The position numbers and the translations under genes are program-made. Below, piece by piece: positions 3,005 through 55,674 of a DNA stretch of 64,000 nucleotides (position 1 is the stretch's first letter; each line of letters starts with the position of its first letter). The notes under the pieces were generated by a model, which saw nothing but the letters and a program-made list of their open reading frames with translations, was not told where the DNA came from and searched no databases. The stretch comes from Candidatus Woesearchaeota archaeon. Lineage in GTDB: Archaea > Nanobdellota > Nanobdellia > Woesearchaeales > GW2011-AR9. The stretch lies in assembly GCA_018696595.1 (NCBI GenBank), contig JABHQW010000001.1, positions 22,428 to 86,427 of the forward strand, in the 5' to 3' direction.

Positions 3005-3232
3005 TGGGCCTACAGGGACTTTCAAATCTCCAGGAAGATTTGTAGTCTCCTAAAGGATATTTGAACCCTGATCAACCGGTATCAACCCAAACTCTTCTTA
3101 AATAATTTGACTGCAGGGAAAATCCTGTTTTGATCAAACTTTTTTTAAAAATTTGGTCCGAAGCCGGCCGCACTTTTTGGCTAGCGCCTAAACTTTGTCT
3201 GACGCCAAGTATCCAGGTTATGCTATAGGCCC
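3005..3232 (-). tRNA. tRNA-Arg(TCG) with three introns (about 20/21: 3175-3210; 37/38: 3081-3157; 59/60: 3019-3059)
   Basis: Removing 36+77+41 nt gives a 74-nt cloverleaf: acceptor GGGCCTA/TAGGCCC, anticodon arm GCCGG-CT-TCG-GA-CCGGT, T arm CAGGG-TTCAAAT-CCCTG. Confidence 0.9.
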
Positions 3233-3989: not shown

Positions 3990-4144
3990 GCCCCGGTGGC
4001 CTAGTGGCTATGGCACCTGACTTGTAGCCAACTATCTACTATGTTTACAATAGTAAAGAAAGCATGGTAAGATATCAGGAGATCGCGAGTTCAACTTCCG
4101 TTAGGGAGTTACAATCCCATGGATTGAAAGTCTCGCTCGGGGCT
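3990..4144 (+). tRNA. tRNA-Thr(TGT) with two introns (37/38: 4027-4073; 59/60: 4096-4130)
   Basis: Acceptor GCCCCGG/TCGGGGC, CCTGA-CT-TGT-AA-TCAGG after splicing; clean BHB at 37/38 (CTTG/TAAG helix, CCA/TGG); 73 nt mature. Confidence 0.92.
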
Positions 4145-7102: not shown

Positions 7103-7188
7103 AAAATGGCAGACATAAAGAAAAATTTTCAATTTTTAAATGTCGGCCATTTGGAAAATAAATAAAAGGAAAATAAAATGGCAGATAT
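7103..7188 (+). promoter_or_regulatory. uORF (7106-7165, 19 aa) with alternative hairpins at the aCPSF1 start
   Basis: ATGTCGGCCATTT (7140-7152) is complementary to both AAATGGCAGACAT (7104-7116) and AAATGGCAGATAT (7176-7188). Confidence 0.45.
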
Positions 7189-9067
7189 ATTAAAAGAAAT
7201 TATTAAAGTACTACCACACAATAAAATATCAGATGCAGCTTATGAAGCAGCAAACATCGTACTTTACACTAAAGATAAAGATTACTTCTTAGACAATAAA
7301 GGAACAATCAGAGAAGCAGTTAAACAATTCAAAAAAAGAATTGAACTTAGACCAGACCCATCAATGTGTATGGAAATGGAAAAAGCAGAAAAACTAATCA
7401 AAACACTAATTCCAAAAGAAGCAGGAGCACAAAATTTCATTTTTGATGCACCAAGATCACAATTAATTATTCATGCTGATAAACCAGGCGTAGTTATTGG
7501 AAAACAAGGAGAAATTCTGAAAGGTATTAAAGAAAAAACAATGTGGGTACCATTAATTAAAAGAAACCCACCAATAAGATCAAAACTAATTGAAAGTATT
7601 CGTTCAGTATTATATGAAAACGCTGATTATAGAAAAAAGTTCTTAGATAAAACCGGTCATCGAGTTTATGATGGTTGGTTAAGAGAAAAAAAACACGAAT
7701 GGGTAAGATTAAGTTTCTTAGGAGCAGCAAGACAAGTAGGAAGAGCTTGCTTATTATTACAAACACCAGAATCAAGAATAATTATGGATTGTGGGATTGA
7801 TCCCAGTCAAGATGGACCAGAATCTTATCCTTACTTAGATGCACCAGAATTTAACATTGATGAAATTGATGCAGTTATTGTAACACATTCACATTTAGAC
7901 CATAGTGGTTTAATTCCTTACTTGTTTAAGTATGGATATAAGGGTCCCGTTTATTGTACCTTGCCAACAAGAGATGTAATGTCCTTATTACAGTTAGACA
8001 TGGTTAAGATTCAAAGAAATGAAGGTAAAGACCCAATTTACACTAGTGAAGAAGTTAGAGACATGGTTTTACATACAATCTGCTTAGAGTTTGATGCAGT
8101 TACAGATATCACACCGGATGTAAGGATTACTCTTTACAATGCGGGACACATCTTAGGAAGTTCATTGGTTCATTTGAATATTGGTAATGGTTTGCATAAC
8201 ATTGTTTTTACTGGCGATTTAAAGTATGGTCGAACAAACGTTCTAGAAGCAGCAAATACTCAATTTCCAAGAGTAGAAACTTTAATTATGGAATCCACTT
8301 ATGGTGGAAAAGATAACGTTATGAACGAACAAGAAGCTGATGCATATATGGTTGATGTTGTTAAGAAGACCTTTGAACGTGGTGGAAAAGTTTTAATGCC
8401 CGTTCTTGGAAGTGGAAGAGCACAAGAAGTAATGATTATTGTTGAAAGGTTAATGAGAGAAAAGAAAATCCCTCAGGTGCCCGTATATTTAGATGGAATG
8501 TTATGGGACATCACAGCAATCCATACAGCCTATCCGGAATTCTTAAACAGAAACATTAGGCAACAGATCTTTCATAAAGAAAATAATCCGTTCTTATCTG
8601 AAATATTTAAAAGAGTAGGATCTAAAAAAGAACGGGACCAGATTATTGCGGAAGAAGGTGCTTGCTTAATTCTAGCAACATCAGGAATGTTACAGGGCGG
8701 ACCATCTGTAGAATATTTAAAACATCTGGCAGAAGGTAAAAAACATAGTTTAGTATTTTCTTGTTATCAGCCACCTGGAAGTTTAGGACATCGTATTAGG
8801 GGTGGAGAAACCGAGATTATGATGAGAGAAAATGGTAAACAGCAAGTTCTTAGAATCAATATGGATGTGCACAAAGTTGAGATTACTAACCATTCAGATA
8901 GAAAGCAATTGATGAACTATGTTAAGAGATGTAACCCAACTCCAAGAAAAGTGATTTTAATGCATGGTGAGAGTTCTAGATGTCTAGACTTAGCTTCGTC
9001 TTTACATAAACAGATGAGAATTGAAACTAATGCACCTAAGAATTTAGAAGTTATTCGAATTAGGTAA
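7178..9067 (+). CDS. fttA: aCPSF1/FttA beta-CASP ribonuclease with KH domains (transcription termination factor)
   Basis: KPGVVIGKQG KH motif, THSHLDH metallo-beta-lactamase motif, AGHILGS; adjacent to psmB as is usual in archaea. Confidence 0.95.
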   Translation: MADILKEIIKVLPHNKISDAAYEAANIVLYTKDKDYFLDNKGTIREAVKQFKKRIELRPDPSMCMEMEKAEKLIKTLIPKEAGAQNFIFDAPRSQLIIHADKPGVVIGKQGEILKGIKEKTMWVPLIKRNPPIRSKLIESIRSVLYENADYRKKFLDKTGHRVYDGWLREKKHEWVRLSFLGAARQVGRACLLLQTPESRIIMDCGIDPSQDGPESYPYLDAPEFNIDEIDAVIVTHSHLDHSGLIPYLFKYGYKGPVYCTLPTRDVMSLLQLDMVKIQRNEGKDPIYTSEEVRDMVLHTICLEFDAVTDITPDVRITLYNAGHILGSSLVHLNIGNGLHNIVFTGDLKYGRTNVLEAANTQFPRVETLIMESTYGGKDNVMNEQEADAYMVDVVKKTFERGGKVLMPVLGSGRAQEVMIIVERLMREKKIPQVPVYLDGMLWDITAIHTAYPEFLNRNIRQQIFHKENNPFLSEIFKRVGSKKERDQIIAEEGACLILATSGMLQGGPSVEYLKHLAEGKKHSLVFSCYQPPGSLGHRIRGGETEIMMRENGKQQVLRINMDVHKVEITNHSDRKQLMNYVKRCNPTPRKVILMHGESSRCLDLASSLHKQMRIETNAPKNLEVIRIR

Positions 9068-9253: not shown

Positions 9254-9405
9254 GCCAGCGTCGCATAATCCGGTATTGCGCTGGTCTTGAAACCTTTGGT
9301 TTTGACCTAATACCAGATAACCAGTTCCTTTTGGAATTCCCGGTTCAAATATCCCCCAGGGAGACTACAAATCTTCCTGAAGATTTGAAAGTCCGGGCGC
9401 TGGCG
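9254..9405 (+). tRNA. tRNA-Ser(TGA) with two introns (37/38: 9292-9318; 59/60: 9350-9391)
   Basis: Acceptor GCCAGCG/CGCTGGC, G discriminator, long variable arm TTCCTTTTGGAA, CTGGT-CT-TGA-AA-ACCAG; 83 nt mature. Confidence 0.9.
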
Positions 9406-9475: not shown

Positions 9476-10483
9476 ATGTTTACACTACAACCCCAAATTG
9501 GTGAAGCTAGAAGAAAAAAAGAAGCAATTCTTAGGAACCCCGAATATTCTAGAAGCAAAAGAACTCAATTTACAAACATGCTCCAACTAGAATCTAATGT
9601 GAATTCTGCAATTATGGAAATTGCAAGTGGTAGTACTGAAATGGGTGTAACTAAATCTAGTACTGGCGATGTTGATTCTCCTCATGTATTAAAAAGAAAT
9701 GTGGAAGATATATGGAAGTGGTTATTAGAAGAAACAGAAGACAAGATATCAATAGACCAACCAAATATTATTGCTTTAGCAAAAAAATTTAGCCCAATGA
9801 ATACTAATTTCAATTATCGTCAAGACAGAGTACATATGAAAGGATTACAATATGCGCCACCTAACCCCTTAAAAGTACCAGAATTAATGGATAGTGTGGA
9901 ACACCACATCTCATGTCAAGACATTAATCCATTAGAAAGAGCTTTAATAGCACATTTCCATATAACTAGAATCCAACCTTTTAATGATGGTAATAAAAGA
10001 ACAGCAAGAATGGTACAAAATTTAATTTTACATAAAAATGATTATGTGCCAATTTTAATTAAAGAAGGAGAAAGAAGTTTTTATATAGACTTATTAGAAT
10101 CTGCAATGATAGCCTTTAAAGATCGGACTTCAAGTTTAGCCCCAGGATCAGAATCATGTTTTACTCCTGAATTATCTCAACAAGAAAGACAATTCTTTAG
10201 CTATTTGGTTGCCAAAGAAGTATCTGCATTAGATGATGTCAAAGATCATTTAGCGAAAAATAGAGAATATTTAGTTACAATGGGAAGACAAGAACCAGGA
10301 GTACTTTACGCAGGTAAAAAATTAATCAAAGGATTTTTCAGAAAAAGAGATTTAAATGGCAGAGTTAAACTAAATCAGCAAGAACGTTATTTAAAGATTT
10401 TCGGAGATATTAGCAGAGATCAAGTAGAAACAATATTAGATAGCAAACCGGGCCAATACGAACTAAAAACAATTACAGACTAA
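9476..10483 (+). CDS. Fic/Doc family protein with variant motif
   Basis: HFHITRIQPFNDGNKRTAR; upstream YRQDRV...PP flap region. Confidence 0.85.
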   Translation: MFTLQPQIGEARRKKEAILRNPEYSRSKRTQFTNMLQLESNVNSAIMEIASGSTEMGVTKSSTGDVDSPHVLKRNVEDIWKWLLEETEDKISIDQPNIIALAKKFSPMNTNFNYRQDRVHMKGLQYAPPNPLKVPELMDSVEHHISCQDINPLERALIAHFHITRIQPFNDGNKRTARMVQNLILHKNDYVPILIKEGERSFYIDLLESAMIAFKDRTSSLAPGSESCFTPELSQQERQFFSYLVAKEVSALDDVKDHLAKNREYLVTMGRQEPGVLYAGKKLIKGFFRKRDLNGRVKLNQQERYLKIFGDISRDQVETILDSKPGQYELKTITD

Positions 10484-22060: not shown

Positions 22061-23284
22061 ATGAAATATGCTCATTTAGCAGACTTGCATCTTGGAAGTT
22101 GGAGAGATGATAAAATGAGAGAACTTTCCACGAAAGCTTTCTTAACAGCAATAGATGACTGTGTTCAGAAACAAGTAGATTTTATTCTTTTTGCAGGAGA
22201 TTTGTTTAACACATCTCTTCCAAACTTAGACACGTTAAAAATAGTAACTAAGAAACTTAAAGATCTTAAAGACAAAAACATTCCTGTTTATGCAATTGCA
22301 GGCAGTCACGATTTCTCACCAACAGGAAAAACTATGATTGACGTTTTAGAAAATGCGGGATTATTAATTAACGTTTGTAAAGGATCAGTAAATCAAGAGA
22401 ACAAACAGTTACATCTGGGTTTTACAGTAGATCCAAAAACAGGAACAAAGATAACCGGCATGTTGGGCAAGAAAGGTTTACTAGACAAAATTTATTATCA
22501 AAACTTATTTTTAGAAAATTTAGAACAAGAACAGGGCTATAAGATATTTATGTTTCACACAACTTTATCTGAATTGAAACCAAAACATTTAGAGAAGATT
22601 GAGTCTCAACCAGTATCATTTTTACCAAAAAATTTTCATTATTATGCTGGTGGTCATATCCATCATCCTACAAAAGTCCATCAGGAAGGTTATGGAACAT
22701 TAACTTATCCTGGCGCGTTATTTCCAAATAACTTTTCTGAGTTAGAAAAGTATAGTAAAGGAAGTTATTTTTTAGTAACTGTTGAGAATGATGAACAAAA
22801 AGTTGAATTAGTACCATTAGAAATTATAAAACATAATTCTTTAATCTTAAACTGCCATCGTAAGACTCCAGAAGTAATCTCATTTGAAATACTAAATCAT
22901 TTCCACGAATTAGATGTAAAAGAAAGTTTGATTACAATCCGTCTCACTGGAACCTTAGATAAAGGTAAGGTCTCAGATATTAATTTCAAAGAAGTTTTTA
23001 GTCAACTCTATAGTAAAGGGGCATTTTTTATTATGAAGAATACTGCTCAGTTAACTTCGGAAGAATTTGAAGAAATTAAGATTTCACATTCTAATCCCGA
23101 AAATGTTGAAGAAGAAATTATTAAAGAACATTTACAACAGATTAAACTATTTGACAGAGACTCCGAATTACACCTAACTAAATCTTTGATGAGGGTTCTT
23201 AATACTACAAAGAAAGAAGGCGAGACAGTAACTGATTTCCAAGGCCGAGTAAAAGAAGAAGTTAGTAAGTTACTGAATTTGTAG
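22061..23284 (+). CDS. mre11: Mre11/SbcD-like DNA repair nuclease
   Basis: HLADLHLG, AGDLF, AGSHD, MFH, YAGGHIH phosphoesterase motifs plus capping domain. Confidence 0.8.
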   Translation: MKYAHLADLHLGSWRDDKMRELSTKAFLTAIDDCVQKQVDFILFAGDLFNTSLPNLDTLKIVTKKLKDLKDKNIPVYAIAGSHDFSPTGKTMIDVLENAGLLINVCKGSVNQENKQLHLGFTVDPKTGTKITGMLGKKGLLDKIYYQNLFLENLEQEQGYKIFMFHTTLSELKPKHLEKIESQPVSFLPKNFHYYAGGHIHHPTKVHQEGYGTLTYPGALFPNNFSELEKYSKGSYFLVTVENDEQKVELVPLEIIKHNSLILNCHRKTPEVISFEILNHFHELDVKESLITIRLTGTLDKGKVSDINFKEVFSQLYSKGAFFIMKNTAQLTSEEFEEIKISHSNPENVEEEIIKEHLQQIKLFDRDSELHLTKSLMRVLNTTKKEGETVTDFQGRVKEEVSKLLNL

Positions 23285-36399: not shown

Positions 36400-37116
36400 G
36401 TGTCTCCAACAGATAGACCTATTTTCTTTGAATTTCCTAATTCCCCAATTAGAGGCATCCCACTCATTTCTGAATCAAGAGAATATCTAAACTTAGGATT
36501 TATGGAAGTGGGATGTAAACCTACAAGAAAAAGAACCCAATTAAGAGATAAGAAAGAATTATTTTACAAATGGTGGGGAGACCAATATAAGAATCAACAC
36601 GGAATTGAATGGACCCCAACAGTTTACCGAATCTTAGCACATTATTGTCCGGAGATACAACCGCGACTTTATGCTAGAAAAACAGAATTAGATGTAGTAG
36701 TCTTGTATACTGAAATTAGTCCAGAAATGTTAGGGGGATTAAATGAGTATGACAAAGAACAGATTTATCGAGTTGTTAAGAATAATCAAAGAAGAAGAGA
36801 TTTATTAGAAGAAATAATTGAAACAAAAGATGCAGAAAGTTTACATAAATTAATTGTTGAAGGTGGAAGAATACCCCAGGTGGAAATGTTAAGAGGAAAA
36901 ATGGCAGAAATTTTAGCTCAGAAAGATATTGAAGAAAATTTACCGTTTGGCATGAATTTCTTTCGTAATAGTTCCATCAATTATTTTAATCGAAGATATA
37001 GAAATGGAACTGAAATTGATGGTGTTTTAACTTTTTATGGAGAAGAGACATTTATGGAATTAGTAGAAAGATTTGGAACTATCGATCATTTAACAATTAA
37101 AGATAGATGGAACTAG
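36400..37116 (+). CDS. Hypothetical protein
   Basis: 238 aa ORF, GTG start, no recognised motif. Confidence 0.55.
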   Translation: MSPTDRPIFFEFPNSPIRGIPLISESREYLNLGFMEVGCKPTRKRTQLRDKKELFYKWWGDQYKNQHGIEWTPTVYRILAHYCPEIQPRLYARKTELDVVVLYTEISPEMLGGLNEYDKEQIYRVVKNNQRRRDLLEEIIETKDAESLHKLIVEGGRIPQVEMLRGKMAEILAQKDIEENLPFGMNFFRNSSINYFNRRYRNGTEIDGVLTFYGEETFMELVERFGTIDHLTIKDRWN

Positions 37117-37142
37117 TAAATGAATAAATAAAATTAAAAAAA

Positions 37143-37478
37143 TTATTTCTTTTTCAATCTTTTCTTAACGGCCTTCTTAATACTCTTACGGCCCTGTTTC
37201 AATCTACTTTTAACAACTCTCTTAACTTTTCCTAAATCGCCTTTCTTAATAACCCCAGAGTTATGTAAAGCACCTTCAAATTGTCTTTTAGCTGTACCTA
37301 AAACAACTTTTGCAGTTTTCTCAGAAGTACTAACTAACTCTCGAGCCAATTTTAAACTCTCTTTTTCAGTAAGACCTAAATCTTTCTTAACTTTTGCAGC
37401 AACTTTTTTTCCTTCAGCCAAAGTTAATAATCCTAATCCATAACCTGTTTTAATTGCTTTCTTAACAACATCTTCCAT
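37143..37478 (-). CDS. Phasin-like small amphipathic helical protein
   Basis: Start moved to ATG 37478 (MEDVVKKAIKTGYGLGLLT); directly downstream of the AarF kinase. Confidence 0.5.
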   Translation of the reverse strand: MEDVVKKAIKTGYGLGLLTLAEGKKVAAKVKKDLGLTEKESLKLARELVSTSEKTAKVVLGTAKRQFEGALHNSGVIKKGDLGKVKRVVKSRLKQGRKSIKKAVKKRLKKK

Positions 37479-55559: not shown

Positions 55560-55674
55560 CGCCCCCGAAGAGATTCGAACTCTTGATCCGTCGGTATCTT
55601 CAAGAGGAGCTCTTGTAGATCTTGAGTTCCTCAAATAACAGCCGACTGCTCTAACCGGACTAAGCCACAGGGGC
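55560..55674 (-). tRNA. tRNA-Asn(GTT) with one 37/38 intron (55596-55635)
   Basis: GCCCCTG/CGGGGGC acceptor, GTCGG-CT-GTT-AA-CCGAC after splicing, AAGAG-TTCGAAT-CTCTT; 75 nt mature. Confidence 0.92.

Follow-up and report, generated by a model that had tools for sequence, protein, structure and literature searches.

The window, by which we mean the whole stretch of 64,000 nucleotides analyzed here, contains three tRNA genes with interrupted T-loops: tRNA-Arg(UCG) at positions 3005-3232 on the minus strand, tRNA-Thr(UGU) at 3990-4144 on the plus strand and tRNA-Ser(UGA) at 9254-9405 on the plus strand. The first-pass annotation had reported the inserts at 3019-3059 (minus strand), 4096-4130 (plus strand) and 9350-9391 (plus strand), and all three strings are present with exactly these coordinates and strands; its assignment of them to three different tRNAs was also correct, each host being a real tRNA gene with its T-loop broken by the insert. 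Run on the unedited window, ARAGORN found zero tRNA genes, and Rfam found only one tRNA, at 55560-55674, unrelated to the three. Once each insert is cut out, a 7-nt T-loop is regained, and ARAGORN recognizes the Thr(UGU) and Ser(UGA) genes; the cloverleaf of Arg(UCG), a gene with three introns, was rebuilt by hand (acceptor GGGCCUA/UAGGCCC, anticodon loop CUUCGGA, T-arm CAGGG..CCCUG). In addition to the 41-nt T-loop intron at 3019-3059, the Arg(UCG) gene carries a 77-nt intron at or near position 37/38 (approximately 3081-3157, minus strand) and a 36-nt D-loop intron (approximately 3174-3209, minus strand), the latter missing from one relative's metagenome contig. The Thr(UGU) gene has a 47-nt intron at 37/38 (4027-4073, plus strand; ARAGORN i(38,47)) and the 35-nt T-loop intron at 4096-4130, whose nearest copy lies in Thr(GGU) on another contig. 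The Ser(UGA) gene has a 19-nt intron in the anticodon loop region (9292-9310, plus strand; ARAGORN i(39,19)) and the 42-nt T-loop intron at 9350-9391. It lies about 190 nt downstream of a gene for the termination factor FttA/aCPSF1 (7178-9067, plus strand, identified by Pfam), with a Fic-domain gene on its other side (9476-10483, plus strand); the linkage of FttA to Ser(UGA) is kept in many relatives and makes a handy syntenic anchor.

The intron-bearing Arg and Thr genes recur without differences on marine metagenome contigs from other studies and are therefore no assembly artefact. Weak hints of intron-less variants in relatives, each from a single contig, come from a 15-letter loose end at 4096 and from letters between 3080 and 3210. 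An A/T-rich segment of about 30 nt is common to the anticodon-loop intron of Arg(UCG) and to an intron that a genome of another genus has in a different tRNA (locus L062, genome G029, C1 ~1373969-1374049); because of this shared segment, intron families may occur at positions other than 59/60 as well.

Each of the three T-loop inserts can be folded with its host into a bulge-helix-bulge (BHB) motif, the outer helix of which is the T-stem. The central helix of 4 bp pairs U54-A57 with UGAA (or UGAG) near the 3' end of the intron, and the two 3-nt bulges consist of A58-A59 plus the first intron base and of the last two intron bases plus U60. It is this register (UUCA/UGAA helix, AG|U and AA|U bulges) that sets the insertion point between positions 59 and 60, upholding the placement first proposed, and it also bears out the proposed pairing of the TGAAAG tail with the T-loop TTCA, as TGAAAG supplies the 3' strand of the central helix together with the bulge. 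Of the two splice sites, only the 3' one is strict; the 5' one is relaxed, its 3-nt bulge facing one extra unpaired U. The folds were computed under constraints for each sequence separately, since gaps in the MAFFT alignment misplace the 3' strand of the long hairpin described below. Of the 23 family members folded, which come from this genome and its relatives, 21 take up the constrained BHB fold at a cost of no more than 3.2 kcal/mol relative to the free minimum, and the free fold differs chiefly by a register slip that pairs A58-A59-U1 and bulges the next three bases. The T-loop and the intron strand of the central helix covary (UUCA/UGAA, CUCA/UGAG and UUCG/UGAA, with a UUCA/UGAG variant too).

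Under the BHB constraints, the remainder of the intron forms one long hairpin in every family member; its stem shows compensatory changes between copies, and its apical loop is conserved as C(U/C)ACAAA. Two hairpins had been proposed initially. For the core type, to which the Arg and Ser introns belong, this model fails, the single long hairpin being better by 2.8-10.3 kcal/mol, whereas for the Thr type the two alternatives are isoenergetic and the two-hairpin fold is viable. The second of these hairpins (CAAAUC/GAUUUG) is incompatible with the pairing of tail and T-loop because the two share a UG that must pair with C56-A57. The apical loop ACAAAUC (3031-3039 on the minus strand in the window, and its equivalents elsewhere) mimics the junction of T-loop and intron, UCAAAU-AUC, so that the 3' strand GAUUUGA has two possible partners and the resulting folds exclude each other.

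Structure and gene content suggest that the inserts are archaeal BHB introns, with splicing predicted to be by the endonuclease EndA and the ligase RtcB. The genome encodes RtcB and a single EndA, a 207-aa ORF (C7:39417-40040 of the assembly, minus strand) with the N-terminal and catalytic Pfam domains that is nearest to the catalytic alpha subunit of Nanoarchaeum equitans. The alpha4-type EndA enzymes are a class long held to require strict BHBs; here, the lone EndA looks alpha4-type while the 5' bulge is relaxed. For DPANN archaea, PMC5829648 reports that heavy disruption of tRNA genes goes together with alpha4 EndA enzymes bearing an extra loop. Two other identities were considered and rejected. 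The inserts are not group I or group II self-splicing introns or endonuclease-encoding introns, being 35-42 nt long and ORF-less with no Rfam hit at these loci, and they are not C/D-box sRNAs, as CUGA is present but the C box is absent and the length is too short.

We refer to the genome that holds the window as G000, to its congeners as G001 and G002, and to a genome of another genus as G016. The G000 assembly is 97% complete (1.19 Mb, 32% GC), and close relatives of its FttA gene come from marine and groundwater metagenomes and bear the name Candidatus Woesearchaeota. Standard finders recover 14 (ARAGORN) or 17 (Rfam) tRNA genes in this assembly. A scan for T-arms with inserts identified 18 genes interrupted between positions 59 and 60, 15 of which become detectable by ARAGORN once the insert is excised; Arg(UCU), a CAU tRNA, the initiator and Pro(GGG) are further carriers. 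At least 20 of the approximately 37 tRNA genes that could be located carry some 59/60 intron. Several tRNA genes in G000 have three introns, and more than half of those located have a T-loop intron.

An nhmmer profile defines a family of eight copies in G000, 35-42 nt long and all in T-loops at 59/60. Four belong to the core "CT" subtype (Arg-UCG, Arg-UCU, Ser-UGA and Gln-UUG), two to a "CC" subtype (Glu-UUC and the CAU tRNA) and two to a shorter "Thr" type (Thr-UGU and Thr-GGU). In the window, the pattern of the shared core has two matches, against zero expected from 100 shuffles, and the Arg and Ser introns are identical at 37 of 42 aligned columns. The TGAAAG tail, which had been taken as a sign of homology, has to be set aside for that purpose: nearly all 59/60 introns of G000 have it, as a requirement of splicing. 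The homology of the intron bodies, on the other hand, stands. With the 6-nt tail stripped, the four core copies are 0.86-0.94 identical, whereas all 210 pairwise comparisons of 59/60 introns give a median of 0.42 and the mature host tRNAs of the core copies are just 0.55-0.76 identical. Neither the splicing motif nor common descent along with the tRNA bodies thus accounts for the likeness. Convergence, in which the splicing motif alone imposes the likeness, can draw on the final six nucleotides (UGAAAG) and the first U, which recur in almost every 59/60 intron of G000 whatever its family; it can hardly be the explanation, given that the identity persists without the tail, that a covariance model finds the family in related genomes at scores of up to 73 bits, and that the apical loop and a GAGAC motif are conserved though the BHB needs neither.

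The same identity table contains further 59/60 families, linking Ala-GGC with Ile-GAU, Leu-GAG with Leu-UAG, and Pro-GGG with another gene. The family common to Ala(GGC) and Ile(GAU) (77-84 nt, three hairpins; G000 C6:257147-257295 and C6:131757-131936, minus strand) is also present in a close relative, where it fills the syntenic Ser(UGA) gene; another relative has a deleted form (L094, L095).

Short repeated elements in a metagenome-assembled genome might also be MITE-like DNA transposons that inactivate tRNA genes, or assembly artefacts. This is extremely improbable here: all eight copies sit in T-loops, no target duplication is seen and the T-loop is exactly 7 nt after removal; covariation across the junctions preserves the BHB; ARAGORN, Rfam and T-loop scans found no second copies of the host genes; and independent metagenome contigs have the identical sequence.

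The two Thr copies call for a separate reading. Their host genes, Thr(UGU) and Thr(GGU), are 81% identical, and because of this the shared intron may reflect paralogy or conversion at the level of the gene and not movement of the intron alone. The Thr(UGU) gene of G000 is closer to its own Thr(GGU) gene (0.81) than to the Thr(UGU) allele of the congeners (0.69). Position 55 of tRNAs is nearly universally U; several Thr tRNAs of this genus have the T-loop UGCAAYU, with G at this position (G000 C3:380383-380455, minus strand, and Thr(UGU) of G001 and G002). Alleles with this loop, which is unable to pair with the UGAA strand, have no 59/60 intron. G000 also contains a partial 3' end resembling tRNA-Gln (C8:~23140-23200, minus strand), 22 kb from the intact Gln gene, which consists of the start of a T-loop, two small hairpins and ..GGGGCUA.

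Beyond G000, a covariance model of the T-arm with its intron matched 24 of 59 related genomes. Across relatives and metagenomes, the family occupies at least 19 anticodon classes and 11 isotypes, always at 59/60. Its hosts are Tyr in G001; Phe and Thr(CGU) in G002; Glu in G016; Leu(UAA) in G036 and G058; Arg(GCG) in G018; Trp in G029; Ser(GGA) in G012; Ser(GCU) in G014; and Gln in G004 and G034. On JGI metagenome contigs, it was found in Arg(CCU), Ser(GGA), Glu(CUC), Met(CAU) and Gln, again without exception at 59/60, and a scan of viral contigs for the core motif returned no match. G001 has two tRNA-Tyr genes (C7:12549-12716 and C41:16416-16592), one without a T-loop intron and one with a core-type intron that matches the Ser(UGA) intron of G000 at 40 of 42 bases; at the same 59/60 site, Tyr of G000 has an unrelated intron of 18 nt.

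The decisive evidence comes from orthologous genes. Along the syntenic stretch that holds Arg, Thr and Ser, the congeners are 77-84% identical to G000 in DNA sequence, and around the genes compared the identity is roughly 73-89%; their assemblies are 81-84% complete, which limits the intron absences that can be checked. Syntenic orthologues of Arg(UCG) are present in both G001 and G002, and both have an intact, intron-free T-loop. The T-loop of the syntenic Ser(UGA) gene is likewise intact in G001, and the 59/60 site of Arg(UCU) is empty in G001 and G016. In Gln, this site holds a core-type intron in G000 and a Thr-type intron in G002, G004 and G034, and it is empty in G001. Phe is filled in G002 and empty in G000 and G001, and Thr(CGU) is filled in G002 and intronless in G000. 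Eleven Ser(UGA) genes downstream of FttA were recovered from relatives, six with an empty 59/60 site and five with unrelated introns: a long one of the Ala/Ile type, a shortened version of that type and three others. Among Ser(UGA) genes with long 59/60 introns unrelated to the core type are those of G016, G004 and G012. The introns of Glu and Thr(GGU), in turn, look vertical, the latter matching at 32 of 35 positions between G000 and G002. Because orthologous introns are themselves conserved between species to this degree, copy identity of about 90% alone dates no event. It is the empty or differently occupied orthologous sites that lead to the two conclusions drawn from this comparison: 59/60 is an old site, often filled, at which one intron gives way to another, and the spread of the core type in the G000 lineage came after its split from the congeners.

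Vertical inheritance with differential loss would instead place the introns in the ancestor of the genus, followed by precise losses in the congeners, with the likeness among copies maintained by structural constraint. On the one hand, Glu has the same subtype in G000 and in G016, the Thr(GGU) intron is orthologous and conserved between G000 and G002, the presence of some 59/60 intron in Ser(UGA) of G016, G004 and G012 marks an old site, and losses do occur, as in Gln of G001. On the other hand, the outgroup Ser introns are unrelated to the core type in sequence, Arg(UCU) and Arg(UCG) are empty in the relatives named above, and the core introns are far more alike than the exons of their hosts, which diverged before the last common ancestor of archaea; other 59/60 introns under equal constraint are just 42% identical. 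We consider this scenario very unlikely. The first-pass annotation had named ancient orthologous intron-bearing genes as evidence that would speak against its proposal; the congeners' syntenic copies of Arg(UCG), Arg(UCU) and Ser(UGA) are not of this kind. Its proposal, a family of T-loop introns that moved recently in an archaeon of the DPANN group, is borne out by the empty or differently filled orthologues, the identity across isotypes and the Woesearchaeota relatives.

Overall, it is probable that positions 3019-3059 hold a BHB intron at 59/60 of tRNA-Arg(UCG), one of eight copies of a family that has spread by a non-vertical process, with DNA conversion as the likeliest route. In the precursor, the T-stem would form the outer helix, U54-A57 would pair with UGAA (or UGAG) as the central helix and the rest of the intron would fold into the long hairpin; from structure and gene content, the lone alpha-type EndA would cut both bulges and RtcB would join the exons. 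The comparison of genomes shows that copies have come, gone and been exchanged at 59/60 of many different tRNA genes since the congeners diverged. This would have happened through ectopic conversion between T-arm regions at the DNA level, selection retaining only those products that still fold into a cleavable BHB. Breaks that start such conversion may come from LAGLIDADG endonucleases encoded next to tRNA genes, as the positions of these genes suggest.

We put the chances that conversion of variable-length T-arm segments in DNA is the route of spread at about even. What points to it are changes in the T-arm that accompany the intron. The exons of Phe in G002 and G000 differ solely at four T-stem positions, adjoining the intron gained in G002, and in Thr(CGU), the CAU tRNA and Glu, the sequence of the T-stem or T-loop is altered together with the intron. 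Among the family copies of G002, none was found to be a donor for its Phe T-arm (GUGGG/CCCAC). By comparison, Arg(UCU), Ser(UGA) and Gln have unaltered exon sequence on either side of the intron, and their events are exact to the splice sites, which fits a unit defined in RNA as well as it fits a short conversion tract.

The main rival operates on RNA: introns or pre-tRNA halves would be mis-joined by RtcB into another pre-tRNA cut at 59/60, or reverse-spliced, and the chimera would be copied into DNA. Besides the splice-site-exact events in the three genes with unchanged exons, such swapping could account for the frequent replacement of one 59/60 intron by another (in Gln, in the CAU tRNA and in Ser(UGA) across relatives) and for the single position of all copies, with a nearly universal exon side, UUCAAA|U. 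Against it, a search of the 97%-complete genome for reverse transcriptase genes (RVT_1) came back empty; a T-loop without an intron has no BHB that could be cut, and the Arg(UCG) and Arg(UCU) orthologues are intronless in all relatives checked; and the T-stem changes seen in several events are not predicted by a unit that consists of the intron alone. On balance, RNA-level swapping is unlikely.

Some involvement of LAGLIDADG endonucleases in the spread of the introns may be suggested by where their genes lie. G000 has three free-standing LAGLIDADG_3 ORFs of 200-240 aa, each 5-78 nt from a tRNA gene: one at C3:151502-152221 (plus strand), 28 nt from tRNA-Cys and 107 nt downstream of Arg(UCU), which hosts a core intron; one at C1:36191-36796 (minus strand), 78 nt from tRNA-Leu; and one at C2:56324-56929 (plus strand), 5 nt from the initiator tRNA. 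In relatives within the order (L133-L152), seven of 17 LAGLIDADG loci have a tRNA or 5S rRNA gene detectable by Rfam within about 600 nt, and two more adjoin intron-rich tRNA genes that Rfam misses. In G001, an ORF of 206 aa overlaps the 5' end of Thr(UGU) (L039:600-1530; G001 C27 ~36400-37320, minus strand), and a 17-nt remnant upstream of it resembles the Thr(UGU) allele of the G000 type; the same new Thr(UGU) allele is found in G002 without the ORF. The G001 locus looks like a cassette of endonuclease and tRNA that has displaced the resident Thr gene, as far as its sequence can tell.

A bolder possibility, which we regard as doubtful, is that the 59/60 introns are true mobile cassettes with determinants of their own, engaged in an arms race over the T-arm. 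One such determinant could be the apical loop C(U/C)ACAAA, which mimics the T-loop and can pair with the same UUGA strand. Free-standing LAGLIDADG endonucleases or integrases that target tRNA genes would make the breaks, and ectopic repair would then copy intron-bearing T-arms, immune to cleavage, among tRNA genes.

Families of transposed introns are known from Thermoproteales (Fujishima et al. 2010, Mol Biol Evol 27:2233, cited here through PMC4090602). These are near-identical BHB introns in tRNAs of different isotypes with exons that are not closely related, and their gain is inferred to have followed speciation; the Thermoproteales work yielded families and no mechanism. The family described here has the same hallmarks, with introns in different isotypes that reach the identity of at least 80-90% expected of a transposed family (0.86-0.94) and dissimilar exons (0.55-0.76). 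Close relatives have intron-free orthologues for Arg(UCG), Arg(UCU) and Ser(UGA), and their Gln genes hold another intron type or none. Judged from these sequence comparisons, the tRNA-intron "transposition" of the Thermoproteales type extends to a new lineage, the Woesearchaeota. A recent preprint counts 28% of introns in Thermoproteales and 1.5% in Asgard archaea as members of cross-isotype families (bioRxiv 10.64898/2026.10.13.758758); the share found here is similar to the former and far above the latter, allowing for the different method of the preprint. There are also clear differences from Thermoproteales. The host belongs to the DPANN archaea and has a small genome rich in A and T; its single alpha-type EndA contrasts with the (alpha-beta)2 enzyme of Thermoproteales, which has a Crenarchaea-specific loop. 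In addition, all copies are at one position, 59/60, the same site has been re-occupied repeatedly by different families, and in some events the whole T-arm was carried along.

Another DPANN archaeon, ARMAN-2 (Ca. Micrarchaeum), resembles G000 in having many multi-intron tRNA genes with short BHB introns at non-canonical positions, but its EndA is of the epsilon2 type, compared with the one alpha subunit of 207 aa here (PMC3239211, PMC5829648). In their available parts, these two sources cover enzymes and intron positions, and not families shared across tRNAs or presence and absence among near relatives. As in G000, such tRNA genes in ARMAN-2 are missed by standard finders. A third comparison is with the BHB introns of archaeal rRNA genes that carry LAGLIDADG homing endonuclease genes and spread by homing at the DNA level. 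The likeness lies in BHB splicing and in the LAGLIDADG genes that are common in this lineage beside tRNA and 5S rRNA genes; the difference is that the introns here are non-coding and only 35-42 nt long, and the endonuclease genes are free-standing next to RNA genes.

One practical consequence is that tRNA-based quality metrics are biased for DPANN genomes, since only 14-17 tRNA genes are recovered by standard finders in a genome that is 97% complete. The broader question addressed is how protein-spliced tRNA introns arrive in genes; the Asgard census of 2026 reports repeated intron gains and gives no route (bioRxiv 10.64898/2026.10.13.758758). This lineage offers clean material for that question: one fixed site, several recognizable intron families, congeners in which one and the same syntenic gene can be seen empty, filled or filled anew, and events both with and without co-conversion of the T-stem. 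The boundaries of the tracts, the rates and the possible role of neighboring homing endonuclease genes are therefore directly measurable. If the reading of the 59/60 introns as mobile cassettes in an arms race over the T-arm were true, it would provide a concrete and testable route for the gain of BHB introns.
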